From an uncultured delta proteobacterium (GTDB lineage Bacteria > Desulfobacterota > Syntrophobacteria > BM002), in the NCBI GenBank assembly GCA_963712115.1, contig CAVQGX010000037.1, forward strand, positions 125,875 to 189,874: a stretch of 64,000 nt of DNA, read 5' to 3'. This document shows, one piece after another, positions 2,645 through 54,864 of this stretch. Made by a program: the position numbers and the translations under genes. A model generated the notes under the pieces. The model ran no database searches and had not been told where the DNA came from. It was given only the letters and a program-made list of their open reading frames with translations. Position 1 is the stretch's first letter; every line of letters begins with the position of its first letter.

Positions 2645-2784
2645 ACATCACCTGATTCTCCTATCGCAACACCAATAATTACACTGCTTCGAGGGCAAAA
2701 CAATGTCAGTTTTTGCTCTACTGCAATATAATATGTTCTTGCTGGGCTTGAAGGTCTATGCAATAAATGTAATAATACGTCCGA

Positions 2785-2994: not shown

Positions 2995-3110
2995 GAGTGA
3001 TGAGCTAATGACGGGTTCTGGTCCTTAGCACAGAAGGAGTGAATGCAACTTTGAACATGCTCCAGGGAGTTTCAATATTTAATGCGGCATATAGGAGAGA
3101 AAGGTAGCTA

Positions 3111-29987: not shown

Positions 29988-30722
29988 GGGTCATGACTAG
30001 AACAGCGGGTACTGTCTGCACATTCTAAGTAGGATTGCGGAGGGATTTTCACCTCTATGGTTGAATCTAAACTCGCACTCCTTTAAGTGCAAATAAAAGG
30101 TGGATTTACTCATACCCCTGAACTTAGAGAGTCTGGTTTTTGAATAACCCCAAAAGCTTTCGATTCCGTTGATATGAGATTTGCCCTGAACGAACTGATC
30201 AGTGGCATGTTGAACCCGAAAATGTTTTTTGTAACCCAAGTCAACGAGGCCGTTGTAGCCACGCCAGTAATCGGAATGGATAACACTATCAGGACTCACA
30301 CGGCCCCTGATAACCGCCTGAAGGGTCTTGCGTCTACAGTCAGGAACAATTTCCGTGTAGACTTTACCATTTCGTTGGAAAATGCCAAATACAATGGTTT
30401 TACCACCCGCCCCGCGGCCTCTTCGGCCTTTGAAGCGGCGGGCACCGAAATAGGACTCGTCAACCTCAACTACGCCAGAAAAGGGTGATTGTTCTTCACA
30501 ATGCTGAGCAATCCTCTTTCGAATTTCATTGAGGTAACGGTTGACTGTATTGCGGTTGAGTCCGGTGACTTTGGCAATCTGAGAGGCGTCCAAATCGACA
30601 GAGAAAAGCTTGATAAACTCTCGAAATTTCCTCTCAGAAAGTTTCGCACCTTTTGCATACTTGTTTTTCCGCGTCATGACTACTTTTAGCACGATTTAAC
30701 AGTGCTGTTCTAGTCATGACCC
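29988..30722 (-). mobile_element. Complete IS1595-family insertion sequence (735 bp)
   Basis: Perfect 19-bp TIRs gggtcatgactagaacagc / gctgttctagtcatgaccc; 8-bp TSD ttaataat at 29980-29987 and 30723-30730. Confidence 0.95.
29997..30692 (-). CDS. IS1595-family transposase
   Basis: VEVDESYFG, RGRGAGGK, HSDYWRGY, HINGIESFW, LKECEFRFN. Confidence 0.95.
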   Translation of the reverse strand: MLKVVMTRKNKYAKGAKLSERKFREFIKLFSVDLDASQIAKVTGLNRNTVNRYLNEIRKRIAQHCEEQSPFSGVVEVDESYFGARRFKGRRGRGAGGKTIVFGIFQRNGKVYTEIVPDCRRKTLQAVIRGRVSPDSVIHSDYWRGYNGLVDLGYKKHFRVQHATDQFVQGKSHINGIESFWGYSKTRLSKFRGMSKSTFYLHLKECEFRFNHRGENPSAILLRMCRQYPLF

Positions 30723-37202: not shown

Positions 37203-39236
37203 CTAAGGGTCTGTCATAGTAGGCGCCTGGCCCAACATATTCAACTCCGCCACCGACGTCCAAGGGTTTCCATTCGCCTCGCTCAACGCCACCAGGCGAA
37301 TGTACCTACCTGTCACTACCGTCCCAAAGAGCACTTCTTGTTCTGTCTTCGTGTTCGGAAACGTACCTTTATTCACCGGCGCACCCCAGGCCACTCCATC
37401 ATCGCTCACGTAAAATTCGTAATCGGCAATCTGACCGTTCTGATACCAATCCGGCCGCGGCAAATAAAGAAAACCACTGAGCTCATACACATCGCCGAGA
37501 TCAATCTGGATCTCATGTGGTGGTGGCGGATCTTGCAGAAACCACTCCGTATGCCACCACGTGCCCGAATCCCCGTCAAACGCAGCGGTCGCCGGCTTGA
37601 AAACAGCCACCAACTCCTCACTGTCCACATACAACAGGCTCCAACCCACCTGCGAAATCACACTTGTCGGCGCCGGCGTGACAGAGTCCCTGATAGTTAG
37701 GTCGTGGGAGTTCGCACTGGCTATTGCACCTTCGGTGTAAGAAGCCGAAATCTGGCATGCTTGGTCTGAATTGACATCATAGGTGGTAAGAAGACCCGTG
37801 GCTGAGATACTTGCAGAGGCACAGTCCACATCCCAAATATCCGGCTCCACCAGTCGATTGGTGCCATCAGTGTAATATGCCCGGCAGTTGTAGTCCGCAT
37901 CGGTATTTTCTATTACATTAACAGGACCTTCGATCTCAATATAATCGAGTATACCAGTCGGGACCGCCACGCCCAGCATATTTAACTCCGCCACCGACGT
38001 CCAAGGGTTTCCATTCACCTCGCTCAACGCCACCAGGCGAATGTACCGGCCTGTCACTACGGTTCCAAACAGCACTTCCTGTTCCGTCTTCGCGTTCGGA
38101 AACGTACCACTAGCCACCGGCGCACCCCAGGCCACTCCATCATCGCTCACGTAAAATTCGTAATCGGCAATCTGACCGTTCTGTTCCCAATCCGGCCGCG
38201 GCAAATAACGAAAACCACTGAGCTCATACACATCGCCGAGATCAATCTGGATCTCATGTGGTGGTGGCGGATCTTGCAGAAACCACTCCGTATGCCACCA
38301 CGTTCTCGAATCCCCGTCAAACGCAGCGGTCGCCGGCTTGAAAACAGCCACCAACTCCTCACTGTCCACATACAACAGGCTCCAACCCACCTGCGAAATC
38401 ACACTTGTCGGCGGCGGTGGTGGTGGTGGTGGTGGTGGTGGTGGTGTGACAGAGTCCCTGATAGTTAGGTCATGGGTGTCCGAACTCGTTATACCACCTC
38501 TGGTATAAGAAGCCGTAATCCGGCATGCTTGGTCTGAATCGACATTATAGGTGGTAAGAAGACCCGTGACCGTGATACTTGCGTAGGAACAGGCGACATC
38601 CCAGGTGTCGGGCTGCACCAATTGACTGCTCCCATCAGGGTAATATGCCCGGCAGTTGTAATCCGCATTGGAATTCTCGTTGACATTGAGCGCACCCTCT
38701 ATCTCAATATAATCGAGGTCAGGTGTAATAACAGGACTTCCGATTGTGATTGATACTTCATTGGAATCGCCACTTTCACCGTAGGCATTGTAAGATCTTA
38801 TAACGAGATAATAGGTGGGCTCGCTGTCCAGATCAATTGTGCAGATTGTGCCTGAACCTTCCCAAGCTGGAGAGCTGTATTTATAGCTCTGCCCGTCCTG
38901 GCGTTTGAAGAGTCTATATCCATCAGCCCCGCTGGAAGCATCCCATGCCAGGGTGACCTGATCCGCGTGAGCGTTTGGTTTGAAGAAAGCAAATATCGAG
39001 ACTACGAGTAAGGCCAAAACCATGCGCCAAAACAGTTTCGAATGCGAACTAGATAAAGTGATGGAAAATCGAGGCACAGAAGTTCTGGCTCTGAGCTGCC
39101 TCCATAGTGGGCTATTGGGGTCTTTCCTACTTGCAGAAGTCTGCCGGAGTAATGAAGTAATGGAGTAATGGTTTAATGAGAAGACTTGTTCGAGTTGAAA
39201 TTCGGGGTTTAGCTTTTTCCAATTTAAAGCTACCAT
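37203..39236 (-). CDS. Secreted protein: FN3 + two (Ig-like + F5/8 type C/CBM32) modules with a poly-Pro linker
   Basis: VTLAWDAS FN3; two near-identical AFDGD..TWWHTEW..PHEIQIDLG..YLPR..NGQI..GRYIRL domains; (GGT)n at about 38410-38445; real start probably downstream of 39236. Confidence 0.85.
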   Translation of the reverse strand: MVALNWKKLNPEFQLEQVFSLNHYSITSLLRQTSASRKDPNSPLWRQLRARTSVPRFSITLSSSHSKLFWRMVLALLVVSIFAFFKPNAHADQVTLAWDASSGADGYRLFKRQDGQSYKYSSPAWEGSGTICTIDLDSEPTYYLVIRSYNAYGESGDSNEVSITIGSPVITPDLDYIEIEGALNVNENSNADYNCRAYYPDGSSQLVQPDTWDVACSYASITVTGLLTTYNVDSDQACRITASYTRGGITSSDTHDLTIRDSVTPPPPPPPPPPPPTSVISQVGWSLLYVDSEELVAVFKPATAAFDGDSRTWWHTEWFLQDPPPPHEIQIDLGDVYELSGFRYLPRPDWEQNGQIADYEFYVSDDGVAWGAPVASGTFPNAKTEQEVLFGTVVTGRYIRLVALSEVNGNPWTSVAELNMLGVAVPTGILDYIEIEGPVNVIENTDADYNCRAYYTDGTNRLVEPDIWDVDCASASISATGLLTTYDVNSDQACQISASYTEGAIASANSHDLTIRDSVTPAPTSVISQVGWSLLYVDSEELVAVFKPATAAFDGDSGTWWHTEWFLQDPPPPHEIQIDLGDVYELSGFLYLPRPDWYQNGQIADYEFYVSDDGVAWGAPVNKGTFPNTKTEQEVLFGTVVTGRYIRLVALSEANGNPWTSVAELNMLGQAPTMTDP

Positions 39237-39798: not shown

Positions 39799-40791
39799 TC
39801 AATCGGAAGTGAAAACAGGCTGTCTCGCATAGATAGATTCGATGACCCTCTCCAAAGGGGGGTCCGTGATAGCTATGTCTTGAACGGGAAAATTGCTGAA
39901 TAGATGAGCAGCCACGGCAGGGGCCTTATCCGGTTCAACTTCAAGCAAAACTTCGTCTTCTTTTTTTTCTAGCAGATGTCCAAGCTTTTCGAGTTGCTCT
40001 ACAGCCCACGGGCCACTGAACACAACTCTGATTTGCTTCGTGTGGCCATTTATGCGGCTCAAGTCTCGGATGCTCCCGTCAAAGACGATCTCTCCCTGGT
40101 TTATGATCACAATCCTGTCGCAGACTTGCTCAATGTCGGACATGTTATGCGAGGTCAGGAGAACTGTTTGCTTGCCTTCCCTTCCTTTTTCTCTGATAAA
40201 TTCCCTGATCTTCCTGGCATTGATCAGATCGATAGCGTTTGTAGGTTCATCGAGAAAAATGACGCTAGGATTGTGGAGCAGAGCTGCAACCAGCTCACAT
40301 CGCTTTCTCTGACCGAAGGAAAGCTTTCTTTGTGGAACCCTGAGAATGTGTTGGATGTCAGCCAACTCGAGCAAGCTACTTAAGCTCGCCTTGAAGGACT
40401 TCTCGGGGATTTCATAGACAACCTTGCAGAAGTGGAAATAATCTTCGGCGGGCAGGTCCCAAAACAAGCGGTTCCTTTGCCCGGCAACCAATGTGATGTT
40501 TTTGAGAAACTTCTTCTCCCGCTTGAAAGGCAAAGACCCCATAACCTCCACATAACCTCTCGTGGGATGGAGAATACCGGCCAGCATCTTCAAGGTAGTA
40601 GTTTTTCCGGCGCCATTTGGTCCAATAAAGCCCACAATCTCGCCTAATTCAACATCCAGATTAATTTCCTTGACAGCCTCCACGAAGACCTTCCTGCCCC
40701 TAAACAGTGATTTCATTGAACCGGTTAGCCCTGCCTCTTTGTCATAGAACCAGTATGTTTTCGATAGGTCTCTCGCCGTGATTGCTTTCAT
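39799..40791 (-). CDS. ABC transporter ATP-binding protein
   Basis: GPNGAGKTT, LSFGQ, FLDEPT, SH. Confidence 0.95.
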   Translation of the reverse strand: MKAITARDLSKTYWFYDKEAGLTGSMKSLFRGRKVFVEAVKEINLDVELGEIVGFIGPNGAGKTTTLKMLAGILHPTRGYVEVMGSLPFKREKKFLKNITLVAGQRNRLFWDLPAEDYFHFCKVVYEIPEKSFKASLSSLLELADIQHILRVPQRKLSFGQRKRCELVAALLHNPSVIFLDEPTNAIDLINARKIREFIREKGREGKQTVLLTSHNMSDIEQVCDRIVIINQGEIVFDGSIRDLSRINGHTKQIRVVFSGPWAVEQLEKLGHLLEKKEDEVLLEVEPDKAPAVAAHLFSNFPVQDIAITDPPLERVIESIYARQPVFTSD

Positions 40792-40843
40792 TGGTATTCT
40801 CCAAGTCGGTGTTTCTAATTTCTGGCTCCTGCCTATTCCACAA

Positions 40844-41644
40844 TCAAGTGCTTGCAGATAGGTAGGTCCTCAAACCGAATCTCCAAAAATTCAATGCGAG
40901 GACAAGTAAAATCGCCGTTACACCAATGGCAAAAAGGCCAAACTCGGGAGATAGGGTGAGCAACAAAGCTTGCGACGGCAGCTGAGCGATCAAGACCAAA
41001 GGCAGAAAGTAGATAAAAACCACCTTCCAAAAATATCCGAAGATATCCAGAGGATATCGACCTATTTTAAAAAGATTGTCAAATATTTTTGCCAGGCCAC
41101 TGGATTGGGTTGTCCAAAATGAGAGAGTGGCGATGATAAGGACTACAGAAAAAAGAAAGGTCAGGGCGTTGATCAGGAGCAAAATATAGATCAAAACCTG
41201 AAACCATGAGAAGGCGAACTCCAAGCGGTAGAGCACGTAGACCAAAAAACCCAGTGCCGGGAGAAAACTGATGGCATCGATGAGATCTATCTTTTCGAAG
41301 GATACAAAAAACAGCAAATTCACAGGCAGTAACAAGTGCGCATCCAGTTCGCCGGTCTGAATTTGATTTGGGAGTTGAAAAGCCAACCCGCGATAAAAGG
41401 TGATGCTCATCAAATAGTCCACCAGATGGAAGGTGGCAAAGAGGAGCAGCACCTGATCAAAGTTCCAGTGGCCGATTCGATCCACCTTTAAGAAAATGGC
41501 CTGAAAAAAGAAGAAAAGTAGGCCCATGCGGATCACTTTCCCAACGATCATTACGAAGAAATGTGGCCGGTAAGCCATCTGGCGCATAAGGCCAATCTTT
41601 GTAAAAAGTCCAAGCAGAATAGCATAGCGGCGCAATCCACTCAC
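40844..41644 (-). CDS. ABC-2 family permease (DUF990-like)
   Basis: Hydrophobic; GELD..LL.P, RYP.DIF; adjacent to the ATPase. Confidence 0.85.
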   Translation of the reverse strand: MSGLRRYAILLGLFTKIGLMRQMAYRPHFFVMIVGKVIRMGLLFFFFQAIFLKVDRIGHWNFDQVLLLFATFHLVDYLMSITFYRGLAFQLPNQIQTGELDAHLLLPVNLLFFVSFEKIDLIDAISFLPALGFLVYVLYRLEFAFSWFQVLIYILLLINALTFLFSVVLIIATLSFWTTQSSGLAKIFDNLFKIGRYPLDIFGYFWKVVFIYFLPLVLIAQLPSQALLLTLSPEFGLFAIGVTAILLVLALNFWRFGLRTYLSAST

Positions 41645-41648
41645 TCGA

Positions 41649-42470
41649 CTAATCCCCCATGGAAACGTACTGCTGGATACCTCTTTTCCAAACGATGATG
41701 TTTACAAGAGCAAGGCCAACTATCCAGGCAGCCTCCTTCGACAACTCCACAGTTGCCTGATCTAGCGAGATCTTGCCCAGATAGATTCTCATGGGCAAGT
41801 AAATAAAAAAGTGGAAAGGGAAGAAAAGAAATATCTTCTGGAGAATTGCAGGAAAAAACGAGAGAGGAATTATAACTCCCCCGGCCACCTCCATAAAAAC
41901 TCGCACAGTGAATCGCATGCCGGCAGTATTTTCAAACCAGAAGGCGAGGAGGCCCAAGGCCTCAAAAAGAAAGAACTGAAGCAAACTACCCATAAAAATA
42001 GATAGTAGGAGAAAGAAAAAATGCTTGAGACTGGCTGGAGAAACCAGGTAGTCCCTGAAGAAGACAAATACCACAAGGTAACCCGTAAAGCCCAGCAACA
42101 AGAGGAAGGCCTTGTTTCCGAGGTCCCGTACAAACCAGACCAGGTATGGGCTAATGGGGACGCTTAGCATATTGGAAAGGCTGCCGTCTCGGATACTCTG
42201 ACTGGCTTCTGCGTTCCAGGCCATGGTCAGGACAAAGCTGCTGATTAATCCGCCCCCCAGGAGATAGGTAACCATCTCTGCGACTGAATATCCGCCGATT
42301 ACACCGCGGGTGGAACTCCGATAAACTGCCAGCCAAAGAAATACCACGATGAGCGAGGAAAGGATGCCGCTCAGTATCTCCAAGCAGAAATTCACCCGGT
42401 AGATCATCCTTTGGATCCATGCCAGCTTAAAGACATGCCAAAATTTGATTAGTGAGTGATGGGTCGCCAT
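41649..42470 (-). CDS. ABC-2 family permease (DUF990-like)
   Basis: YR.NF, IRDGSL..ML..P, GG..IPLSFFP, C-terminal YVSMGD. Confidence 0.85.
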   Translation of the reverse strand: MATHHSLIKFWHVFKLAWIQRMIYRVNFCLEILSGILSSLIVVFLWLAVYRSSTRGVIGGYSVAEMVTYLLGGGLISSFVLTMAWNAEASQSIRDGSLSNMLSVPISPYLVWFVRDLGNKAFLLLLGFTGYLVVFVFFRDYLVSPASLKHFFFLLLSIFMGSLLQFFLFEALGLLAFWFENTAGMRFTVRVFMEVAGGVIIPLSFFPAILQKIFLFFPFHFFIYLPMRIYLGKISLDQATVELSKEAAWIVGLALVNIIVWKRGIQQYVSMGD

Positions 42471-42908: not shown

Positions 42909-43292
42909 TTGCTTATGAAAAGAGGAAGGCTGAAGTTTCTATTTTTGATCATAACTTGCTTTTTCATGCTAAAGGGCTTGGTACACAGTAGCCTTGGAGA
43001 CCACTCGATTACTGCGAGGACCGATGGCTCCTTAAAAGAACACAATTTTACCACAACATCAGAATCCGATGAGATAGCTGTGGGCTCTGACCAGTATGAC
43101 GTGCAAATCGCCAATAATAACCTTAAAGTTTCTCCTGCGCACACAAGAGAGAACCCTATTGTAGAGGGGCCAAGCAATTCAGAGGTGGAAATTGATGAAG
43201 ATCAGAACAGTGGACCTGGAGTAGCAAGTTTTATATTATTTTTTGTAGTTATAGCCTGGCTTACCACTGCGGGGGGGCCAAAAGAGAATTAA
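42909..43292 (+). CDS. Small exported protein with a C-terminal transmembrane anchor
   Basis: RBS ggagtgg, signal-like N-terminus, acidic linker, hydrophobic tail SFILFFVVIAWL; flanked by a promoter and a hairpin. Confidence 0.65.
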   Translation: MLMKRGRLKFLFLIITCFFMLKGLVHSSLGDHSITARTDGSLKEHNFTTTSESDEIAVGSDQYDVQIANNNLKVSPAHTRENPIVEGPSNSEVEIDEDQNSGPGVASFILFFVVIAWLTTAGGPKEN

Positions 43293-43350
43293 CGGCTCAA
43301 ATCATTAGAGTTAGGCCGGCCCTTGCCACCAAGGGCACAGCTCATATAGT

Positions 43351-43381
43351 TTGGAGGGGAGTACTACTTACTCCCCTCCAA
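43351..43381 (+). terminator. Terminator-like hairpin
   Basis: ttggaggggagta-ctact-tactcccctccaa. Confidence 0.65.
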
Positions 43382-43726
43382 TGCTTTCGGCTGCAGGAGC
43401 TTCATAATCGTTAAAGGATGCTGTGACGCTATCTCGCCTACAATTAAATCATCACCTCTGAAAATATTCAAGTAAGCTTTATCGAATGCAAAACACCTAA
43501 TTCAGAGTTCAAATGGAGTAGCATGTAGTTAACAATAATTGAGCAAGATTTCGTTCTTATTTATTTATTAGTTTGATAACAAACTGTAGAGTAATTGTTT
43601 TTACTTACCAAGAAGTTGCAATTGTTTTCCACTTTTATGACAAATATTGCTTTGTTTTTCGAATCTAAATTCAGTTGATATTTTATAACATACTGCAATA
43701 ATTAAAAAAAATATTGCAATGGTTAT

Positions 43727-43742
43727 TGGCATGATCTTTGAT
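43727..43742 (+). promoter_or_regulatory. sigma54-like promoter of the RiPP operon
   Basis: TGGCATGATCTTTGAT (variant -12), with AT-rich upstream DNA. Confidence 0.55.
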
Positions 43743-43805
43743 ATAAATGTAGGTCGAGCATTAGGCTATATTTTCAGAAGAAACCACTTGGAGAAGAAGC
43801 GTTTG

Positions 43806-43983
43806 TTCTGATCGCAACATCAGGAAGCCCAGTTAAGTCCGGTACACCTAACTGGGCTCCAATGCAAACCCGTAACGTCGCCCAAAGGATTTGTCACGGG
43901 ACATGTTTATTAAATACCATAAGGCCAGATGTGTCAAGCCGTAAAAGGATGCTCTATTTGTGGCAAATGAGTGTCCTTTTTTT
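43806..43983 (+). ncRNA. Structured leader or sRNA: three hairpins plus an intrinsic terminator before the PqqD gene
   Basis: Stems at 43806-43825, 43826-43858 (agcccagtta/taactgggct) and 43869-43900; terminator aaaaggatgctc..gagtgtccttttttt at 43943-43983. Confidence 0.5.
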
Positions 43984-44061
43984 ATGTTATGTACACTACC
44001 TGATGGACGTAGGGGTTGTTAAGTGCATAAGAGTGGTTGCTCTTTAAAGAGGGAGTAAATA

Positions 44062-44337
44062 ATGAATGAAACTAAGCTATATCGTCGTAACCCTTCGGTC
44101 ATAAGCACCGAGTTAGACGGTGGCGCAATTCTCCTAAATCTTGATAACAAACATTACTACAATTTAAATGAGACTGCATTTCGAATCTGGCAAATTCTTG
44201 AAGAAACCGAAAGTACATTAGATTTGGCGAAACAGTTAGCTATTGAGTACCAGGTGGATCTAAGAACAGCCAGAGCAAGTTTGAATAGGATGATGGGGGA
44301 GTTTGAAAGGGAGGGCTTGACCCTAACCAAAAAGTAA
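44062..44337 (+). CDS. PqqD-family RiPP recognition element (lasso B1/E-like)
   Basis: ELDGGAILLNL..YYNLNETA.RIW, LAIEYQVD, EGL. Confidence 0.9.
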   Translation: MNETKLYRRNPSVISTELDGGAILLNLDNKHYYNLNETAFRIWQILEETESTLDLAKQLAIEYQVDLRTARASLNRMMGEFEREGLTLTKK

Positions 44338-44491
44338 TGTGGACATGCCACAATGAAAAATTTTGTCGAGAGTCTGTTTGAAGCACTCGAGGATCCACCC
44401 AGTAGCGGTGCCTCGTTTTGATAAGTTGAATGCGGGGAAAAGAATTATCTGTAACTCAAGCTTCCCATCTTAAATAAAGGAGGTGATTTGT

Positions 44492-44611
44492 TTGAAAGAT
44501 GACAAAAGAAAGAAATTTGTTGAACCTGAGCTAAATAAGTATGACAAGCGGTTAGATGAGGTGACTTTGTGTATTCCTCCCCCATATGGGTGGGACAACA
44601 AGCCACGGTAA
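44492..44611 (+). CDS. Lasso-type RiPP precursor, 39 aa: MKDDKRKKFVEPELNKYDKRLDEVTL-CIPPPYGWDNKPR
   Basis: Strong RBS aaggaggtga before TTG; FxxPxL leader motif, Thr at -2, Cys1 and Asp9 in the core; lies between the RRE and kinase genes; below the ORF-track cutoff. Confidence 0.8.
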   Translation: MKDDKRKKFVEPELNKYDKRLDEVTLCIPPPYGWDNKPR

Positions 44612-44707
44612 CCATATTTGGTCGAAAGCTGGAGAGAGGATCCTCGAGTGCTTTGCATCACCTTAACTTGATGATTGAGAAGGTGTTTGATTCTGTAGGG
44701 AGCGCAT

Positions 44708-45682
44708 GTGACGAGAACAGGTCTTTTCCTTGTTCAAGACCTAACCGTAAGAGTTGCGGTTGAGGAGGACCTGTACCCACTCGTCGCAGGCTACTTCAGT
44801 TCACTTTGTACCCAAGAAGGCCGCCCAGGAAAAAATTCCCTGGACTTGGGAATAAGCATAGAAAAAAAACCACCATCTATTCCTCCTGACTCAGTCTTGG
44901 CAATAAGAAAACCATTAACGACATCCTACATCAGAGGAAACGAAATCTACCTCACATCAGCAGATGGTTCGGTAATCCAATTGGATACGGAAGTTAGAAA
45001 ATCGCGGGCAATTTTTTCGAAAGAGATTTTAAATGACAAAGAAAAGTTGTTCATATTATTGGGAGGACTTCTGGTTGAAGTGCTGAGATACAACGGGCTC
45101 CATTTCTTACATTCTGCTGCTGTCAAAAATAATGGCATAAGTCTTCTAATCTCTGGGGATGGTGGGAGTGGAAAGACAACGGCATCGTTAAGTTTGGTTA
45201 ACGAGGGTTTCAAATACGTGTCAGATGATTCTATTTTCATTAGGGAAGAAAGTGCAGAGATAATTGTTTATCCCCTGTACAGAGCCTTCAATATCGATAG
45301 AGATTTGTCAAAACGTTTTCCAAACCTAATCAAAGAAAGAATACGGCCGATACCCAAAGGAGTGAAGCTGTCAGTAGATATTTCAAAAATTTATCCATAT
45401 TCCTTTACTCCATTCATGAGACCAAATGTGATCATTTTTCCGAAAATAACACCTCTGCGAAAGAGCGCGGTGCACCCTCTCAGCCAAGTCGAAATCTACG
45501 ACAGACTGCTTAGGCAGACCGTCCTGGCAATTGACAATGAAATAGCCAAAAACCAACTGCTATCATTAGAAACATTGGTAAAACAAGCAGCTGGATATGA
45601 ACTCCTCAGCGGTAAGGACATATACGAAGATTCTTCAAAATACATTGACCTTATCACCGAATTAGAAGGCCAATTGACCTGA
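44708..45682 (+). CDS. HPr-kinase-like RiPP kinase
   Basis: LHSAAV, Walker A GDGGSGKTT, YVSDD; gene context as in paeninodin-type clusters. Confidence 0.85.
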   Translation: MTRTGLFLVQDLTVRVAVEEDLYPLVAGYFSSLCTQEGRPGKNSLDLGISIEKKPPSIPPDSVLAIRKPLTTSYIRGNEIYLTSADGSVIQLDTEVRKSRAIFSKEILNDKEKLFILLGGLLVEVLRYNGLHFLHSAAVKNNGISLLISGDGGSGKTTASLSLVNEGFKYVSDDSIFIREESAEIIVYPLYRAFNIDRDLSKRFPNLIKERIRPIPKGVKLSVDISKIYPYSFTPFMRPNVIIFPKITPLRKSAVHPLSQVEIYDRLLRQTVLAIDNEIAKNQLLSLETLVKQAAGYELLSGKDIYEDSSKYIDLITELEGQLT

Positions 45683-46158
45683 TGTCAAAAAAAAGAAAAA
45701 TTCATACTGATTTTTTTGGGAAAGTTTGGCTTTTAACAAAAATCTTCATACTAACGAGTCTTTTACCTCTACTTGTTAGATTTCTGTCATTACCGCAACT
45801 TATGCAATTACTCACGCCCAAAAGTATAAGAGTTGCGAAAAATATCGAGTTACAAAAATATAGAATTAAAAAATTTGTAGACTACATATTAAATAAAAAC
45901 ATTTTAATGTGGAAAAAAACGTGTCTGAAGCGATGCCTAATTCAATATTATTTTTTACGAAAAACAGGGTTACATGTTAAAATATTTTTTGGAGTGAGAT
46001 ATAAAAAATTATATCCTTACAGTTGTAACAAAAAAGAAATCGAAGGCCACTCATGGCTTGTATTAAACAATGATGTTTTTTTCAATGAAGATCGTGAGGA
46101 GGTAAAATCGTATAGTATAATATATTGTTTTCCACATGTTGAATTACAACGTTTTTGA
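45682..46158 (+). CDS. Lasso peptide B2-type leader protease (transglutaminase-like)
   Basis: CLKRCL...LR..G....FGVR...GHSWL with the catalytic Cys and His. Confidence 0.88.
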   Translation: MSKKRKIHTDFFGKVWLLTKIFILTSLLPLLVRFLSLPQLMQLLTPKSIRVAKNIELQKYRIKKFVDYILNKNILMWKKTCLKRCLIQYYFLRKTGLHVKIFFGVRYKKLYPYSCNKKEIEGHSWLVLNNDVFFNEDREEVKSYSIIYCFPHVELQRF

Positions 46159-46300
46159 CAAAAATAATTTAAAAAACTTTTGTTCAAGCAGTTATTAAAA
46201 ATCAACACGCATTATTTAGATAATAAAGTAAATTGTTAGTTTGTATAATATAATAATTTTCGATAACCATTTAGTCTTTTTTATATAAGGAGAATCTGAA

Positions 46301-47305
46301 TTGTCGTATGCAATTCAGACAAAAAATCTGGGTAAGAAGTTCACGGCAGGAAAGAGATACCGAGATCTATTGATGAATCCGTTCAAAACTGCTCAGATTA
46401 CGGCACTCCAAGGGATAAATATCGAAGTTAATAAGGGTGAAGTCTTTGGGCTGTTGGGACCAAATGGTGCAGGAAAAACCACGCTCATAAAAATCCTGTG
46501 CACATTAGTCCTACCAAGTGAAGGAAGTGCCTTCGTCAACGGGCTTGACGTGACGAAGCGCGAGGATATGGTTAAGCGATTAATTGGATACGTGATTAGC
46601 GAGGACCGAAGTTTTTTCTGGCGACTAACTGGAAGAGAAAATCTCAGCTTTTTCTCAGCGCTTAATAACCTCTCACGTGAGGAAAGCACCAAGCGGATAA
46701 ATGAGGTAACAGAACTAGTTGGGTTAAGTCATGATATTGATAATCCATTCAAAAACTACTCGTCAGGGACCAAACAAAAACTGGCTATTGCTAGAGGGAT
46801 GCTTACAGATCCAGAGATACTATTCCTGGATGAACCCACGAGGACTCTAGATCCAATCACAACGAGGAATTTGCGTGAATTTATCAGACAAATAATTGTG
46901 AAGGAGCAACGAAAAACGGTAATCGTCGCTACAAACAATATGCAAGAGGCAGAGGAATTATGTGATCGAATTGCAATCTTGAGAAAAGGAAGATTGATGC
47001 TTTGCGAGTCAGTTAAGAATGCCAAGGTTGCTTTTAACGGTGGCAGTAGATACATAATCAAATTAAAAGAGAATTGTCATGATATTCATCGAAAACTTCA
47101 GTCACACATTTTAGGTGCTAAAATTGTTAATTCGAGTCGTGAATTTTCCGACCTTAGTGGCTCTGTGCTTACTGTAGAAGTTGAAACCAAAAATGGCAAC
47201 ATATCCGAGATAATTAAAGCCATTGTCTTATCTGGCATCAGGGTAGAGACATTCAGTCCCAAGAGATCTTCTCTTGATGAAATCTTTGCGAAAATTGTTG
47301 AATAG
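46301..47305 (+). CDS. ABC transporter ATP-binding protein
   Basis: GPNGAGKTT, YSSG.KQKL, FLDEPT. Confidence 0.95.
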   Translation: MSYAIQTKNLGKKFTAGKRYRDLLMNPFKTAQITALQGINIEVNKGEVFGLLGPNGAGKTTLIKILCTLVLPSEGSAFVNGLDVTKREDMVKRLIGYVISEDRSFFWRLTGRENLSFFSALNNLSREESTKRINEVTELVGLSHDIDNPFKNYSSGTKQKLAIARGMLTDPEILFLDEPTRTLDPITTRNLREFIRQIIVKEQRKTVIVATNNMQEAEELCDRIAILRKGRLMLCESVKNAKVAFNGGSRYIIKLKENCHDIHRKLQSHILGAKIVNSSREFSDLSGSVLTVEVETKNGNISEIIKAIVLSGIRVETFSPKRSSLDEIFAKIVE

Positions 47306-47313
47306 GGAGTTTT

Positions 47314-48126
47314 ATGGCATATCTTAGAAAACCACTAGCTTTCCTATATAAGGATTTTTTAAGTCAGGCGAGTTACAAGCTAGCATTTATTTCTGAAATG
47401 TTTGGTATATTTCTTTCAGCTTTGGCTTGGTTTTTCTTGTCAAAAATATTCGGAGAAGCCGTTTCGCCACATCTCAAATCTTATGGTGGTGATTATTTTT
47501 CCTTCGTTCTCATCGGTGTAGCTTTTAGCAGTTATTTACAGGTAGCGCTAAATAGTTTCGCAACTAATATAAGGAACGCACAAACTTTGGGCACACTGGA
47601 AGCAATGTTGGTTACGCAGACCAGACTTTCAACATTAATTTTCTCCTCTTCACTATATAGTTTTTTATTCACTTCACTCAGAGTAGTCGTTTATTTGCTT
47701 ATAGGTGCTTTTGTTTTTGGTGTGCACATCGGTGGGGGTAATTACTCAGCGGCATTACTAGTCTTGCTACTTACTGTGACGTGTTTTAGCAGTATGGGTA
47801 TAATGTCTGCTAGTGTTATTATGGTGATAAAGAAAGGCAATCCCTTGAACTGGATCTTTATTAATTTATCGTGGTTAGTTGGTGGAGTGTATTATCCTAT
47901 TACGGTTTTGCCTGATTGGCTAAAAAAAATATCGTATTTTTTGCCCATAACCTATGCATTGGAGGGTATGCGAATGGCTCTCCTAAAGGGATCAAGTTTA
48001 ATGTCATTGTTACCCACCGTAATTCCCTTGGTTATTTTTTCGGCTTTTATGTTGCCAGTTAGTTTGGGTGTTTTTAGCTTAGCTGTTAAGAGGGCAAAGA
48101 TCGAAGGCTCTTTAATACAATATTAA
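47314..48126 (+). CDS. ABC-2 type permease
   Basis: GTLE, GGVYYP..VLP.WL..IS..LP.TY. Confidence 0.9.
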   Translation: MAYLRKPLAFLYKDFLSQASYKLAFISEMFGIFLSALAWFFLSKIFGEAVSPHLKSYGGDYFSFVLIGVAFSSYLQVALNSFATNIRNAQTLGTLEAMLVTQTRLSTLIFSSSLYSFLFTSLRVVVYLLIGAFVFGVHIGGGNYSAALLVLLLTVTCFSSMGIMSASVIMVIKKGNPLNWIFINLSWLVGGVYYPITVLPDWLKKISYFLPITYALEGMRMALLKGSSLMSLLPTVIPLVIFSAFMLPVSLGVFSLAVKRAKIEGSLIQY

Positions 48127-48212: not shown

Positions 48213-49562
48213 TTGTGTGAAACGATGACGCGGTCACGGAGAAAGGGCGAACAAGTGCTGAGCAGAAATGCAGTTCATGGTGGTAGGATAGAGCATGAAC
48301 TCCTTCTTGCTTGTGCTAGGGTTAAAGTCGAGCATGAGACAGTTGATGAAATTAGGGTATATCTTAGCGAACACATTGATTGGGAATATTTAATTCGGAT
48401 AGCCCTTAGACATGGAGTTATCCCTCTATTGTCCCGGAACTTGGCCAAGACCTTCCCGGAGGTTCTACCTGGGGACGTTAAGGACCGTCTAGGTAAGTAT
48501 TTCTTAACGAACGCCCAACGTAATCTTCTTTTGACGGGCGAAATGCTAAAGGTACTAGATCTTTTCGAGGCACAAGGGATCTTGGCCATACCTTTCAAGG
48601 GACCTGTGCTGGCATCTCTAGCTTATGGTGACCAGTCGTTGCGACAGTTCTCAGATTTAGATATCTTGATCCGTGAACGATTCGTTCCAACTGCCAGAGA
48701 CTTGCTTATTTCAATGGGCTACAGGCCTGATCCTGAACATCAACTGGACTTTGAGGCTCACTTTTTTCATCCTGAAAGCCTCTGCGTGCTAGATCTTCAC
48801 TGGGGCATCACCTACAAAAACATCAACAGAGGAAAGGATGCCTCCTTTGCTATAGATCTTGAGGGCGTATGGGAACGTGCCAAGAACATTTCTTTTGCTG
48901 GAAGGAGAGTGCTCCACTTTTCACCAGAAGATTTGCTGATGATCCGATGTCAGGACGCTGCGAAGGAGTACTGGAAAGATTCCTGGCCCCAACTCAAGTG
49001 GATTTGTGATGTCGCAAGAATAATCCGTACATATCAAGACATGGATTGGGGGCTAGTATTTGAGGAAGCCAAGAGTCGAGGTAATCAAAGATTACTATCA
49101 CTTTGCCTTTTACTAGCAAAAAATCTTCTCAATGCAACCATACCCGATGTTGTTCTGCAAAATCTAAAAAACGATTCTCAAGTAGCTTCTCTTACCTCCG
49201 ATGTGGGTGAGCTGCTTTTCCGTGAACCCGGTTCCCCGAATCGGTTCCTTGATCGTAAGTCTGGGTTTTTGGCACGGAACCTATTCTGTATCAGGTTAAA
49301 AGAACGCCCGCGAGATAGATGGGCGTACTATTTGCGCTTTTTGGAAGAATATCGTTGCAGTGCCTGCGAAGCAATAAAGAGTAAAGAGTCCCGAGACCTC
49401 CTGTTAGTGCCCGTATCTTTGCCATACTTACATCATCTTCTAGCCTTTCTCTACTATTTATTTTGGCCAATCTGGCGTAGTGGAAGGTATGGGGTAGGGC
49501 GGTTGAAGCTCATCAGGAAAATGCTGAAGACTCGAAGGTTGCAATCAATTGAGGGAAGTTGA
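48213..49562 (+). CDS. Nucleotidyltransferase (NTP_transf_5 family)
   Basis: IDW..L...A.RHGV.PL, FKGPVLA..AY...LRQFSDLDIL, DLHW, LKWICD. Confidence 0.88.
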   Translation: MCETMTRSRRKGEQVLSRNAVHGGRIEHELLLACARVKVEHETVDEIRVYLSEHIDWEYLIRIALRHGVIPLLSRNLAKTFPEVLPGDVKDRLGKYFLTNAQRNLLLTGEMLKVLDLFEAQGILAIPFKGPVLASLAYGDQSLRQFSDLDILIRERFVPTARDLLISMGYRPDPEHQLDFEAHFFHPESLCVLDLHWGITYKNINRGKDASFAIDLEGVWERAKNISFAGRRVLHFSPEDLLMIRCQDAAKEYWKDSWPQLKWICDVARIIRTYQDMDWGLVFEEAKSRGNQRLLSLCLLLAKNLLNATIPDVVLQNLKNDSQVASLTSDVGELLFREPGSPNRFLDRKSGFLARNLFCIRLKERPRDRWAYYLRFLEEYRCSACEAIKSKESRDLLLVPVSLPYLHHLLAFLYYLFWPIWRSGRYGVGRLKLIRKMLKTRRLQSIEGS

Positions 49563-49760: not shown

Positions 49761-51308
49761 TCAGGTGGAATAATGCTGTTTGAATAAGTGAAATACTGCA
49801 AGCATGACTAACCCTAGTACAAAGGGAAACGATAATACCCAATATCCTTTTAAGAACATGTAGCTGAAACCTACCAGAGGCATGAGGGCTAGACGGACTG
49901 CAGGTTTCAAGTATTCATGGACCTCAATGAAATCTGCCGCCTGAGGACCAGAGCGGTAATACGGTTTTACAAACCACTTTCCTGGTGCATTATTCAGTAG
50001 ATGCTTATCCCTGAAGTCTCTAAGAAGTTTTACGTTTGGCTCCATATAAGAACCGAAGGCAGCAGTGGCGATAAAGCAGGAGGAATTGACTGCACCTGAA
50101 TCTCTATTTTCGATTACAAGTGCACTGGGGTCCATTATGATACCGTTAGCAACACCGTCTACATCCCCGTAGTCGCCATCTTTTAGCTCAACTGTCACCG
50201 ATTTTCCTTGTTCACCGAAAGTGCAGTAGTGGGTGTAATCATACCAACCACGGATTGAATCGTATTTATAGAATCGGTGACCCGTCGATACATTATCCGA
50301 AAAATAGATTGTCACTTTAGCCACAGCACCCGGCTGGTCCAGGATTAAACGATAGGCCATGAGGCCGACCGAGATGTCACCAGGGGCGTTATGATCTTCC
50401 ATGACCGTTGCAGGATCTATGATGTCCACCGCCTCAATCGCTTGAATGGATTCCGAAGCCTTACCGATGCCGATCACAGTAGTGCCGTCGATGGATTTCA
50501 CAGACTTTATTACCTCAGGTTGAAGGACGTCATCGACTCCGTCTTCGTTCAGGTCCACACCATAGTCAACTTCCTGTTCATCGGGAATGCCGTTGTCATC
50601 CAGGTCTTTGTTGGTTGCGGTAGTGGTAAACTCAATCCACTCTGACCAGCCTGAATCCGCATCATGACTATCGTAATGTTGAACTCGAACGTAATACGTA
50701 CTGTACTCATCTAACACCATTAAGGGAACAGACAGACTGGTGAGATGCTGAATTGTACGGGCATCGAGAAGCAGGGAAGAAGAACTCGGCAATTCACTGA
50801 TCTGCCAGCGACTGGACAAATGTGAGTCATCGTCCGGATCTACAAAAGGCTCCGTTGTGATAACAGGAGTAAGTTCACATTCGTGTTGTCCCGGGTAGGG
50901 CGAGATTATAAGCGGCTCATCGGGAGGCATATTAAAGCCTGGCGAATCGCTCCAGCAAACTTCATTGGAATCATCACTTTCGTTACCGGAAATGTCAAAG
51001 GCCCTGACCACGAAACAGTAGTTTGTCTGATCTTCGAGTTTGTCAACCGTGCAGGTTGTTTCGGTGCCAACCCATATCGGATTTGTATAATCATAAGGTT
51101 GAGATTGCTTGCGGTAGAACATTTTGTAACCGCCTAGTTCCGGGTGAATAACCGGATCCCAAATCAGAGAGACCTCTGAGGCATAAGCGGCTCTGGTGGA
51201 ATGGAAGAACACTGATAAAAATAAGGTACAAACTAAGATCAATCTGAAAAGGGCGGGTGATTGCGATCTCTTCCGCTTTGATATTGGGTGATGAGAAATG
51301 CTCTTCAT
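49761..51308 (-). CDS. Secreted FN3 + FN3-like + choice-of-anchor U domain protein with CFI-box-CTERM
   Basis: Signal peptide; VSLIWDP FN3; [20 protein letters not shown]; [12 protein letters not shown]...LRDFRD...TM tail. Confidence 0.85.
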
Positions 51309-51918: not shown

Positions 51919-54864
51919 TCATTTACTCCCGCTTTTTTTAATGGCTAGGGCTATCCGAGGGAAGATCAATATTATGAGTAACGTTGCAAGGCTCAACATT
52001 GACGTCTCAGCACCAAGATAGAGCATTACGTAAGCCATTGCAGCAAAAGGCAATAGACTAAAGCGAACCACTTTACGTAGCGTTTCATGTTTGGCAACAA
52101 GGTCTGCCAGCGTAGGCGAGTAGGTATAGTAAAGTTTCAAAAACTCTTCGCCCAGAGGATTGATAATTAGGAAACGATCTCGGAACTCTCTAGGTAAGTT
52201 AACATGATAATCCGTCGACGAACCATAAGTCGCTGTGGCGATGAAGCAACCGCCGCCAGATGCACCGGGGTTTTTTTTCTCGAAATTGTTAACAGTGACA
52301 TCAGTGCTGTCGGTAGCTTTCTGACCACCAGCATCGGTGACAGTCAACATGAATGTGATGATTGTTATCTCTTCGTTATCTTGAAGCTCAGGCGCTGTAA
52401 ATGATGCTTGAACCGTGTCTCCATCTGACAACGTCACCCTAGGGCCGACTACTTGCACCCATGAGTAAGATTGAATGCCATCGTCTTTGTCGGAGGAGTT
52501 AGATCCATCCAGAACCACACTACTTTTTTCAAGCGGGCTCTGATCGGGACCCGCATCTGCAATCGGTAGAAAGTTTCCGGTTACTACGTTCAAACTGGCA
52601 GGGGGGTCACTGTCCACCCTGCCATCATTGACGATGAGCTGAATCCCATAAGTGCCAACTACATCAACATCAAAGGTGGGATTTACCGCCGTGGGATTAG
52701 ACAAGGTAGTACTGCTTCCAGGCGGCCGTGAAGTAAAGGACCACTGGAAAGTGAGAGGATGATCGTCGACGTCACTGGAACCACTACCGTCTAGGGTGGC
52801 TGTGTCTCCCACAAAGACCTGTCCAGCCGGTGGAGGCTCAAGTACTGCATTTGCCACCGGGGCAGAGTTTAGCGTGTCTATGGTCACGCTGTCAGGGGCA
52901 CTGTTTACAGTACCATCATTGACAATGAGCTGCACTACATATGTGCCAAATTTATCAACGACAAAGGTGGGATTTGCCAACGTGGGATTAAACAAAGTAG
53001 TACTGCTTCCAGGCGGCCGGGAAGTAAAGGACCAGGAGTAGGTCAAAGGATCACCGTCCACATCACTGGAACCACTACCATCCAAAGTAACCGTATCCGT
53101 TACAAAGGGCGTCTGATCAGGTCCCGCGTCCGCCACCGGGGCAGAGTTTAGCGTGTCTATGGTCACGCTGTCAGGGGCACTGTTTACCGTACCGTCGTTG
53201 ACAATAAGCTGCACCACATAGGTGCCAAATACATCTACGAAAAAAGTGGGATTAACCGCCGTGGGATCAGACAAAGTAGTAGTGCTTCCAGGCGGCCGGG
53301 AAGTAAAAGACCAGGAGTAGGTCAAAGGATCACCATCCACATCACTGGAACCACTACCATCTAAAGTAACCGTATCCGTTACAAAAGGTGTCTGATCAGG
53401 TCCGGCATCCGCCACCGGGGCAGAGTTTAGCGTATTTATGGTGACGCTGTCAGGGGCACTGTTTACCGTACCATCGTTGACAATCAGTTGCACAACATAA
53501 TCACCAAACTCATCAACATCAAAGGTGGGCTTGACCGCAGAGGGATCAGAAAGTGTTGCTGTACTTCCAGCAGGTATTGAGACAAACGACCATGCGAAAG
53601 TCAGAGAATCGCCGTCCACATCACTGGAACCACTACCATCCAAAGTGACCGTATCTCCAACAAAGACTGACTGATCAGGCCCGGCATTTGCCACCGGAGG
53701 AGAATTCAGGGTGGATATGGTGACGCTGTCAGGGGCACTGTTTACCGTACCGTCGTTGACAATCAGTTGCACAACATAATCACCAAACTCATCAACATCA
53801 AAGGTGGGCTTGACCGCAGAGGGATCAGAAAGTGTTGCTGTACTTCCTAGAGGCCGGGAAGTAATGGACCAAAAGTAGGTCAGAGAATCACCGTCCACAT
53901 CACTGGAACCACTACCATCCAAAGTGACCGTATCTCCAACAAAGACTGACTGATCAGGCCCGGCATTTGCCACCGGAGGAGAGTTCAGGGTAGATATGGT
54001 GACGCTGTCAGGGGCACTGTTTACCGCACCGTCGTTGACAATCAGTTGCACAACATAGGTGCCAAAAACATCTACGTCGAAGGTAGGATTAACCGCCGTG
54101 GGATCAGACAAAGTAGTAGTGCTTCCAGGCGGCCGGGAAGTAAAAGACCAGGAGTAAGTCAAAGAATCACCGTCCACATCACTGGATCCACTACCATCTA
54201 AAGTAACTGTATCTCCAACAAAGACTGACTGATCAGGCCCGGCATTTGCCACCGGAGGAGAGTTCAAGGTGGATATGGTGACGCTGTCAGGGGCGCTGTC
54301 TACTGTACCGTCGTTGACAATCAGTTGCACAACATAATCACCAAACTCATCAACATCAAAGGTGGGCTTGACCGCAGAGGGATCAGAGAGTGTTGCTGTA
54401 CTTCCTAAAGGCCGGGAAGTAAATGACCAGGAGTAGGTCAAAGAATCACCGTCCACATCACTGGATCCACTACCATCTAAAGTAACTGTATCTCCAACAA
54501 AGACTGACTGATCAGATCCGGCATTTGCCACCGGAGGTGAGTTTAGCGTAATTGTTTGAGTGTCCGTATCAATTAAAGTATCACTATCAGTAACGGTCAG
54601 TGTAACGGTGTATGTGCCGGCAGTGGCGTATGTGTGGCTAGGTGTCACACCACTGCCATTGGGGCTACTATCGCCAAAATCCCAGGAGTACGAAGCAATG
54701 GGACCATCTGGATCGGACGACGAGGAAGCATCAAAGTCTACAGTTAGCCCTGAAGCCGTGAATGTAAAACTTGCCGATGGCGGGTCTGCAAAAGCCGGCT
54801 TAGCTGTGAGTGTGGTGAGGAAACAAAGAGAAAATGCTAAGAATATAAGAATCTTGGTCTTCAT
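51919..54864 (-). CDS. Adhesin-like protein: nine PKD/REJ-type Ig repeats + CFI-box-CTERM
   Basis: Signal peptide; [26 protein letters not shown] repeats at 279-bp period; GGGCFIATATYGS...TM + KKSGSK. Confidence 0.92.
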   Translation of the reverse strand: MKTKILIFLAFSLCFLTTLTAKPAFADPPSASFTFTASGLTVDFDASSSSDPDGPIASYSWDFGDSSPNGSGVTPSHTYATAGTYTVTLTVTDSDTLIDTDTQTITLNSPPVANAGSDQSVFVGDTVTLDGSGSSDVDGDSLTYSWSFTSRPLGSTATLSDPSAVKPTFDVDEFGDYVVQLIVNDGTVDSAPDSVTISTLNSPPVANAGPDQSVFVGDTVTLDGSGSSDVDGDSLTYSWSFTSRPPGSTTTLSDPTAVNPTFDVDVFGTYVVQLIVNDGAVNSAPDSVTISTLNSPPVANAGPDQSVFVGDTVTLDGSGSSDVDGDSLTYFWSITSRPLGSTATLSDPSAVKPTFDVDEFGDYVVQLIVNDGTVNSAPDSVTISTLNSPPVANAGPDQSVFVGDTVTLDGSGSSDVDGDSLTFAWSFVSIPAGSTATLSDPSAVKPTFDVDEFGDYVVQLIVNDGTVNSAPDSVTINTLNSAPVADAGPDQTPFVTDTVTLDGSGSSDVDGDPLTYSWSFTSRPPGSTTTLSDPTAVNPTFFVDVFGTYVVQLIVNDGTVNSAPDSVTIDTLNSAPVADAGPDQTPFVTDTVTLDGSGSSDVDGDPLTYSWSFTSRPPGSSTTLFNPTLANPTFVVDKFGTYVVQLIVNDGTVNSAPDSVTIDTLNSAPVANAVLEPPPAGQVFVGDTATLDGSGSSDVDDHPLTFQWSFTSRPPGSSTTLSNPTAVNPTFDVDVVGTYGIQLIVNDGRVDSDPPASLNVVTGNFLPIADAGPDQSPLEKSSVVLDGSNSSDKDDGIQSYSWVQVVGPRVTLSDGDTVQASFTAPELQDNEEITIITFMLTVTDAGGQKATDSTDVTVNNFEKKNPGASGGGCFIATATYGSSTDYHVNLPREFRDRFLIINPLGEEFLKLYYTYSPTLADLVAKHETLRKVVRFSLLPFAAMAYVMLYLGAETSMLSLATLLIILIFPRIALAIKKSGSK

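Follow-up and report, generated by a model that had tools for sequence, protein, structure and literature searches.

The 64,000-nucleotide stretch of DNA analysed here (the window) probably carries a cyclase-less, lasso-derived RiPP cassette, the product of which would be a linear 13-mer that is phosphorylated at Tyr6, extended by a nucleotidyltransferase-fold protein (N) and exported. The cassette runs in the order B1-A-K-B2-ABC-ABC-N, all on the + strand, with A being the precursor gene, and is embedded in 36 kb of DNA that encode glycosyltransferases, five sulfotransferases and sugar-nucleotide enzymes. Outside the cassette, the window is a polysaccharide locus, which also encodes large PKD / CFI-box-CTERM surface proteins.

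The precursor is encoded by a 39-codon open reading frame (ORF) at 44492-44611 (+), which begins with TTG at 44492 and ends with a TAA stop at 44609-44611. Its Shine-Dalgarno sequence, aaggaggtga (44477-44486, +), contains GGAGG at 44479-44483 with the TTG eight bases downstream, and the layout GG(A/G)GGTGAT...TTG is common to the window and two related loci (L023 and L027). An alternative in-frame GTG at 44483 falls inside the Shine-Dalgarno sequence, and the TTG is therefore preferred as the start. The 39-residue product, MKDDKRKKFVEPELNKYDKRLDEVTL / CIPPPYGWDNKPR, consists of a leader of residues 1-26, KKFVEPELNKYDKRLDEVTL (44492-44569, +), and the core CIPPPYGWDNKPR, which together with the stop codon occupies 44570-44611 (+). 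The leader contains FVEPEL, an instance of the FxxPxL motif, and Thr25 at position -2, and its assignment is supported by conservation and by pN/pS. The core begins with Cys27 (core 1), includes Tyr32 (core 6; codon 44585-44587, the proposed acceptor) and Asp35 (core 9), and ends in the tail NKPR. The ribosome-binding site, the TTG start and each of these residues had been named in a preliminary description of this DNA, and all were confirmed in the sequence. No second copy of the precursor was found in its own genome. Two further small ORFs nearby, of 61 residues (43862-44047) and 36 residues (44363-44473), were considered as precursors and rejected, having neither a family match nor a conserved counterpart. 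A sigma-70-like site at 44418-44445 (9/12 positions) is not relied on, because the region holds 23 such sites where 15.8 are expected.

To place the ORF among its relatives, we used a kinase profile built from approximately 30 homologues of 39-82% identity, which yielded 12 loci, six of them from species genomes and the other six from metagenomes, or 13 with the window. The preliminary description had proposed to look for conserved small ORFs between the PqqD and kinase genes of related clusters, the absence of which would refute it, and the ORF withstood this check: in 12 of the 13 loci (window counted), the two genes flank a small ORF with this leader, in tandem duplicate in L028. The remaining locus, L025, has no space for an ORF between PqqD and kinase, and its contig begins inside PqqD. 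The leader alignment of the 12 loci is free of gaps and shows K, F, P, K, L, D and T in every sequence, and the frame and stop are kept despite varying core length and sequence. A profile of the 12 precursors, run against 5.8 billion sequences, retrieved a further 112 small proteins (E <= 0.043), of which 111 have F at P-3, while all 112 have Thr at -2 and a distance of exactly 12 residues between this Thr and the leader Pro. The description of the ORF as a precursor with a lasso-type leader is thus upheld by its FxxPxL motif, its Thr at -2 and its homologues.

Selection on the leader can be read from the nucleotide changes. Over 20 leader codons, pN/pS is 0.05/0.77 between the window and L023 and 0.24/0.80 over all pairs; synonymous sites are near saturation and replacements are few, and selection therefore acts on the leader protein. 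Furthermore, a DNA contig from a near-identical strain in another study (~95% identity) carries the changes W34C and K37C and two synonymous changes in the core, with no change across the 43 leader bases that it covers. Core replacements beside an intact leader are, as far as sequence goes, the pattern expected of a RiPP core. Contigs from three runs of one study span the whole ORF with 0 differences (X1, 44310-44632, 323 nt; X3, 44432-44650, 219 nt; X4, 44434-44672, 239 nt), which marks its presence in an RNA library and cannot prove transcription. The bodies of the PqqD and kinase genes have no cover by these contigs, an observation that is not evidence of differential expression.

These results also bear on the possibility that the ORF is not a gene and that the conserved stretch separating PqqD and the kinase instead has a regulatory role, as an RNA or a DNA element. 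In keeping with such an element, the ORF is missing from the called genes of the protein collection, as its designation as "unannotated" in the preliminary description had implied, it has no Pfam or NCBIfam match, and a perfect inverted repeat brackets it. We nevertheless regard this explanation as extremely unlikely, since the leader protein sequence is kept while synonymous sites are saturated, a strong ribosome-binding site precedes the ORF in all 12 loci, frame and stop are maintained, other pipelines predicted genes for the 112 homologues, and an Rfam scan of 43200-44800 found nothing. Accordingly, the ORF is almost certainly the real precursor of the cassette.

The precursor gene is preceded by B1 (44062-44337, +), a discrete PqqD-type RiPP recognition element of 91 residues (Pfam PqqD, E 3.7e-13). 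It scores 48 bits against the NCBIfam lasso_PqqD models, which is under their cut-offs, and its closest solved relatives are TbiB1 (5v1u, E 1.3e-12), TfuB1, PbaB1 (9x90) and LppB (9x8z, 8.9e-4). Co-folding of B1 with the precursor gave a score of 0.54 (runs 0.54, 0.54 and 0.55), compared to 0.01 for the best of three controls; the runs share at least 79% of contacts, with a partner pLDDT of at least 56. Of 157 solved complexes, 116 attain the mark passed here, as do 2 of 215 mismatched pairs; the passes at 0.60 or less comprise only 18 of the 157 solved complexes plus both mismatches. Because similar complexes (TbiB1, LppB) are solved, the pass may show mere likeness, and the model lends weak support to the pairing of B1 with this precursor.

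Downstream of the precursor lies K (44708-45682, +), a P-loop kinase of 324 residues that resembles HPr kinase by Pfam, by PDB profile and by structure. Its match to Pfam Hpr_kinase_C (29.3 bits) is under the cut-off of 33.3, as are its matches to the curated NCBIfam models. By PDB profile it matches HPrK/P (1ko7, E 7e-8), and an AF2 model (pLDDT 85.5) matches PEPCK and HPrK/P in Foldseek. The motifs of kinases of the PadeK/BsfK/LppK type are all present, namely the P-loop GxxGxGK[ST], an upstream His and a downstream Asp-Asp. More specifically, H135, G153, G155, K156, T157, D173 and D174 are invariant among 26 sequences, and the spacing of H135, K156, T157, D173 and D174 equals that of H148, K169, S170, D186 and D187 in BsfK, as compared by published residue numbers and not by alignment; these five BsfK residues are reported to matter for its function (PMC10368454). 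The kinase clade is small, with eleven representatives at 50% identity scoring at least 319 bits and the next at 218 bits, within a larger family of 377 representatives at E <= 1e-30.

The start (ATG) of B2 overlaps the stop of the kinase gene. B2 (45682-46158, +; 158 residues) is a transglutaminase-like lasso leader peptidase by NF033537 and Pfam Transglut_core3, and its score of 38.6 bits against NF033537 lasso_biosyn_B2 exceeds the cut-off of 33. Its Cys (in TCLKR), His (in GHSW) and Asp are retained in 5/5 intact homologues; B2 of locus L017 is frameshifted. B2 stands in the place of the leader peptidase in every locus that reaches far enough. It is followed by a two-component ABC-2 exporter (46301-48126, +) that consists of an ATPase (46301-47305; Pfam ABC_tran) and a permease (47314-48126; Pfam ABC2_membrane). 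This DrrA/DrrB-like pair is present in L015 and absent from L016 and L017. The last gene of the cassette encodes N (48213-49562, +), an NTP_transf_5 protein of 449 residues with a nucleotidyltransferase fold (Pfam PF14907, E 3e-58), which also occurs in all three of these loci. The set conserved together with the precursor in L015, L016 and L017 is therefore B1, K, B2 and N, and in L016 and L017 these five genes stand alone, flanked by unrelated neighbours.

Judged by their sequences, the B1, B2 and kinase components are lasso-derived, and the question is whether the product is a lasso as well. In the canonical lasso leader, Y(-17)xxP(-14)...T(-2), Pro and Thr are 11 residues apart. The family described here differs in having 12 residues and F in place of Y/W. 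The canonical motif agrees with the residue numbers given in PMC10368454. Among the hallmarks of a lasso cluster, the leader with FxxPxL and Thr at -2 as well as B1 and B2 are present, and the cyclase is absent: no lasso cyclase was found at 36-56 kb of the window, and in L015, L016 and L017 the DNA up to 8 kb from the cassette contains no gene of the Asn_synthase family. Because no cyclase belongs to the cassette, we do not propose a macrolactam.

A true lasso would have to be closed in trans. In such a product, a Cys1-Asp9 ring with a tail of four residues would be formed by an amidotransferase homologue encoded elsewhere, either the only Asn_synthase-like protein of the window or another of the six Asn_synthase matches in the whole genome. 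The window core does agree with simple lasso rules in its Cys1, Asp9 and the Thr at -2, TbiB1 and TfuB1 are the closest relatives of B1, and B2 scores above the cut-off of the lasso B2 model. The Asn_synthase-like protein itself (522 residues, 12658-14226, same strand) is encoded 30 kb upstream within the glycosyltransferase/sulfotransferase block, and it weakly matches lasso cyclase models (NF033535, 48 bits against a cut-off of 525). It scores higher as an asparagine synthase (83.5 bits, likewise under the cut-off), amid sugar enzymes, and a search of 5 other genomes with the cassette returned no orthologue of it. A tail of four residues is, moreover, probably too short to stay threaded.

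The family of precursors also speaks against a ring. Among 111 distinct cores, 21 lack any Asp or Glu and are unable to form an isopeptide ring, and the family product is therefore taken to be linear and not a lasso. An acidic residue occurs at core positions 7-9 in 56 of the 111 cores (none there in the other 55), and at positions 10-12 at least as often. Cores may begin with Q (17), M (8) or N (7), among others, and are 4 to 44 residues long. Hence we consider a true lasso very improbable, and the Cys1 and Asp9 of the window core look like a coincidence. The macrolactam between these residues that had been considered in the preliminary description is not borne out, and its suggestion of an unthreaded product, either branched-cyclic or linear, is narrowed: the branched-cyclic form falls with the missing cyclase of the conserved cassette, and the product is very probably linear.

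What the cores do share is a hydroxyl. Of the 111 cores, 107 have Ser, Thr or Tyr somewhere in positions 4-7, compared to a mean of 57.6 in shuffled cores (sd 5.0, maximum 75 in 2000), although the 111 cores are kin and such counts overstate their independence; after crude dereplication, the count is 68 of 72. At position 5, 71 of 110 cores have one of these residues (52 Tyr, 16 Ser and 3 Thr), where shuffles give 18.2, and their share of all core residues is 15.7%. Tyr is present at positions 4-7 in 64 of the 111 cores, and 43 of the 47 cores without it carry Ser or Thr there instead, which leaves four cores with no hydroxyl in this region. The residue at -1 goes with the type of hydroxyl, Leu accompanying Tyr (42 Tyr vs 3 Ser/Thr) and Met accompanying Ser or Thr (33 vs 12). 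Apart from the hydroxyl near position 5, the cores are hypervariable; core position 3, for instance, is Pro in the window and Asn in 47 of the 111.

Because a Ser, Thr or Tyr near position 5 is the only conserved feature of the cores, Tyr6 is the best candidate acceptor in the window, one residue beyond the modal position 5. This agrees with the preliminary description, which had named Tyr6 as a possible kinase target. It had done so on the premise that lasso kinases act on a C-terminal Ser, which is out of date: BsfK and LppK are reported to phosphorylate Ser3 of the core, before the leader is removed (PMC10368454, PMC13381572). A C-terminal Ser occurs in 9 of the 111 cores and not in the window. 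Given the candidate position and what is known of these kinases, whether Tyr6 (Tyr32) is in fact the modified residue appears evenly balanced.

A difficulty for Tyr6 is that BsfK and LppK fail on variants with Tyr in place of Ser3 (PMC10368454, PMC13381572). It gives room to a rather unlikely reading in which the product is a linear, leader-cleaved peptide whose conserved Tyr, Ser or Thr serves only in recognition or structure, while K and N modify the peptide elsewhere (at its N-terminus, its C-terminus or a different side chain) or take a non-peptide substrate, for instance a sugar from the polysaccharide pathway. The glycosyltransferases, sulfotransferases and sugar-nucleotide enzymes that surround the cassette would suit such a substrate, LppN has no established substrate (PMC13381572), and the Gly or Ser that usually precedes the hydroxyl could form a turn motif. 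On the other hand, the presence of Ser or Thr at positions 4-7 in nearly all Tyr-less cores is what an acceptor hydroxyl predicts, and a swap of Tyr for Ser is hard to explain by shape, as the two differ greatly. Moreover, K always adjoins the precursor and B1, and all characterised homologues in such clusters are peptide kinases (PMC8498205, PMC13381572, PMC10368454). We therefore continue to favour the hydroxyl as acceptor. In a quick tree of the kinases, the S-type locus L024 and the S-type P0024 (tentatively paired) fall in one starred clade of five rows; with two S-type cases, this was too thin to claim that kinase clade and acceptor type co-evolve.

Taken with Tyr6 as the acceptor, the cassette suggests the following pathway. 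The precursor would be translated from the TTG at 44492, with its leader under selection at the sequence level, and the PqqD-type B1 would bind this leader via FxEPxL. Guided by the leader, the HPrK-like kinase would then phosphorylate the hydroxyl approximately five residues into the core, here that of Tyr32, and N may extend the phosphate with a sugar or a nucleotide-derived group, comparable to PsmN in pseudomycoidin. B2 is predicted to cut after Leu26, with Thr at -2, and the ABC-2 pump would export the linear 13-mer.

Several elements of this pathway have precedents. The nearest published counterpart is a family encoded by lppA-K-B-S-D-N, the linear polyphosphorylated peptides (LPP), which Popov et al. 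(Nat Commun 2026; PMC13381572) describe as restricted to Bacillota. Both systems combine a recognition element, an HprK-like kinase, an NTP transferase and an exporter (the latter missing in L016 and L017) with no cyclase. They also share a conserved [aromatic]xxP leader with a variable core, an acceptor a few residues past the cleavage site (here a candidate), an association with polysaccharide loci and a patchy distribution (PMC13381572). There are also differences. The LPP leader peptidase, LppS, is SpI-like (SipW-type), whereas a lasso B2 cysteine protease takes its place here; no member of a signal-peptidase family was found among the 48 ORFs of the window (at least 120 residues) scanned with Pfam. 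The leaders read YxxPxVLxHQxIxFETxxS in LPP and FxEPxLxKxxxxLDxVTx here, with Thr at -1 and cleavage after it in the former and Thr at -2 in the latter. The LPP acceptor is Ser3, which is polyphosphorylated, in contrast to a hydroxyl near core position 5 that is Tyr in about half of the present family. LPP clusters use an MsbA-like exporter in place of the two-component ABC-2 pump, and their hosts are Bacillota, whereas the relatives of the window cassette are found in records of Nitrospirota and Thermodesulfobacteriota. In addition, B1 is far nearer to TbiB1 than to LppB by E value (1.3e-12 vs 8.9e-4). LppN is reported to be inactive in a heterologous host (PMC13381572).

The phosphorylated lasso peptides of the Bsf type (bsfA,K,B1,B2,N,C,D), reported from Bradymonas sediminis by Duan et al. 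in 2023 (PMC10368454), involve the same five protein types, namely B1, B2, K, N and an exporter. BsfK is described as dependent on the leader and on B1 and as acting near the N-terminus of the core and not on a C-terminal Ser (PMC10368454), which the candidate acceptor of the window resembles in its position; the equal spacing of the catalytic residues in the two kinases is a further likeness. The Bsf cluster differs from the cassette described here in possessing the lasso cyclase BsfC, in its Ser3 acceptor, where Thr is tolerated and Tyr is not, compared to the candidate Tyr6, and in having Ile at -2 where the present family has Thr. Lastly, paeninodin and pseudomycoidin (PadeK, ThcoK, PsmK, PsmN) share the tailoring pair of an HPr-kinase homologue and a nucleotidyltransferase, and PsmN is reported to add a hexose to phospho-Ser (review PMC8498205). 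These are threaded lassos with a cyclase and a C-terminal Ser as acceptor (PMC8498205), unlike the family here, in which a C-terminal Ser is uncommon. A search of largely open-access literature, PMC12710340 and PMC13352647 included, returned neither a B2-type cyclase-less family nor a Tyr-phosphorylated RiPP.

The cassette is rare in reference genomes. A search of 40 close relatives for the kinase gave only weak P-loop matches, and the leader profile found one of 401 genomes in the G000 phylum sample and one of 401 in the G042 phylum sample, in each case the genome itself. This rarity, together with the lower GC content of the cassette (36-43%, compared to 45-52% in its flanks), fits horizontal acquisition.

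The first report of linear analogues of phosphorylated lasso peptides dates from 2026 and is confined to Bacillota and to a leader protease of the signal-peptidase type (PMC13381572). The locus described here would represent a second, independent route to such analogues outside Bacillota, in which the lasso B1 and B2 are kept and the cyclase is gone. What it adds is a family of more than 100 precursors, the rule of a Tyr, Ser or Thr near core position 5, and a repeat bracket around the precursor gene. Since BsfK and LppK reject Tyr, an HPrK-like kinase directed at Tyr would be a novelty and, if true, would broaden the range of reactions in RiPP tailoring. The recurrent link between such cassettes and polysaccharide loci bears on what these peptides are for. 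Since the window combines a sulfated-polysaccharide locus with a polymer-type ABC-2 exporter, the peptide may prime or cap a glycan through a phosphodiester link and not act as a free antibiotic. The broadest combination of these ideas, an HPrK-like kinase with a new acceptor logic (Tyr, Ser or Thr approximately five residues after the B2 cut, extended by N), a peptide that perhaps primes or caps a glycan, and expression gated by the bracket, we put forward as an unlikely one; if it is true, these would be the first tyrosine-O-phospho(glycosyl) ribosomal peptides.

The bracket is a perfect 16-nt inverted repeat with an upstream arm at 44381-44396 and a downstream arm at 44638-44653, which encloses both the ribosome-binding site and the ORF. 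The exact 16-nt arm occurs only at these two sites in the 4.9-Mb genome, and the repeat closes the MFE and centroid folds of the 44340-44707 RNA (z -1.98). Six of the 12 loci have a bracket around the precursor: the window, L023 (19 nt), L027 (11 nt), L018 (29 nt), L026 (41 nt at 90% identity) and L019 (61 nt at 97%, with a perfect core of 48 nt). The duplex energy is better than 200/200 shuffles in L023, L018, L026 and L019 and better than 199/200 in the window. In L028, L024, L016, L017, L015 and L020, long-range pairing is not significant, and the bracket is therefore not family-wide.

We know of no description of an inverted-repeat bracket around the precursor gene of a RiPP operon, and it represents a possible regulatory device. 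The bracket would fit a long mRNA duplex for processing or stabilising the precursor transcript as well as an invertible stretch of DNA, and may gate expression as an RNase III-type processing stem or as a DNA switch. Contigs from 4 runs contained no strand-changing joints of the bracketed segment, which is uninformative either way as contigs drop rare variants. The arms of the window and L023 are homologous, with several differences that are altered on both arms. In L018, L019 and L026, the 3' end of PqqD serves as the upstream arm and an inverted partial copy of it as the downstream arm, and changes between species are mirrored on both arms.

The precursor gene (44492-44611, plus strand), which encodes a predicted 39-aa RiPP precursor, is bracketed by perfect or near-perfect inverted repeats in six of the 12 loci that carry a precursor ORF. 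The arms are located at 44381-44396 and 44638-44653 in the window and, in the coordinates of the respective related loci, at 1610-1628 and 1872-1890 in L023, 1191-1219 and 1558-1586 in L018, 622-682 and 1049-1109 in L019, 4329-4369 and 4709-4749 in L026, and 605-615 and 887-897 in L027. In half of these bracketed loci (3/6), the PqqD gene contributes its 3' end as the upstream arm, and an inverted partial copy of that end constitutes the downstream arm. Changes between loci are mirrored, with both arms altered. The bracket could act as an RNA processing stem or as an invertible DNA switch.

The core of the precursor diversifies rapidly. Within the core region (44584-44605), a DNA contig from another study, representing a strain of approximately 95% identity, carries two synonymous changes together with the substitutions W34C and K37C, a gain of two cysteines. 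Some relatives harbor tandem precursors with differing cores, two or three per locus, as in L028 (351-590 and 733-888). Among the small predicted proteins matching the leader, P0084/P0111/P0112, P0091/P0098, and P0046/P0068 are candidate tandem sets, the members of each set coming from contigs of equal length.

The cassette, comprising the PqqD (B1), precursor, kinase, B2 protease, exporter, and NTP_transf_5 genes, was likely gained by horizontal transfer. Its GC content (window 43000-48000) is 36-43%, compared with 45-52% in the flanks, and a search of two 401-genome phylum samples with the leader profile returned the source genome itself as the only match in each.

Three related loci show features of their own. 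Immediately upstream of the cassette in L026 are two ORFs of 488 and 246 aa (1074-3280), which by eye look similar to an IS21-type transposase pair. Upstream of the L015 cassette, a PqqD domain is fused to a PGA_cap (capsule synthesis) domain (184-1773), followed by GMC oxidoreductase genes; this fusion is a second RRE, linked to capsule chemistry. In L017, from a Nitrospirota assembly, a frameshift divides the B2 gene (8953-9400), which means that the gene is a pseudogene or that the assembly is in error at this point.

Upstream of the cassette in the window, and in divergent orientation, lies a second ABC system consisting of an ATPase and two ABC2_membrane_6 permeases (39799-42470, minus strand); none was seen adjoining the cassette in the three long related loci (L015-L017). 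A 677-aa protein (37203-39236, minus strand) is made up of two near-identical halves, each with one F5/8 type C domain, separated by a poly-Pro run of twelve residues. Two large surface proteins (49761-51308 and 51919-54864, minus strand) both end in a C-terminal CFI-box-CTERM sorting-type domain (NF041770), and the larger contains eight PKD repeats.

A long polysaccharide locus occupies window positions 738-36451. It encodes GT2/GT4 glycosyltransferases, five sulfotransferases, a NodZ/FUT8-like fucosyltransferase, a GDP-mannose dehydratase, a UDP-glucose dehydrogenase, and a GH26 protein, and its product is likely a sulfated exopolysaccharide with fucose. An IS1595-family transposase gene (29997-30692, minus strand) is located within it. 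Flanked by a GT4 gene and sulfotransferases, a 522-aa Asn_synthase-like protein (12658-14226) lacks approximately the first 100 profile positions, corresponding to the glutaminase start, and is probably a sugar amidotransferase rather than a lasso cyclase.
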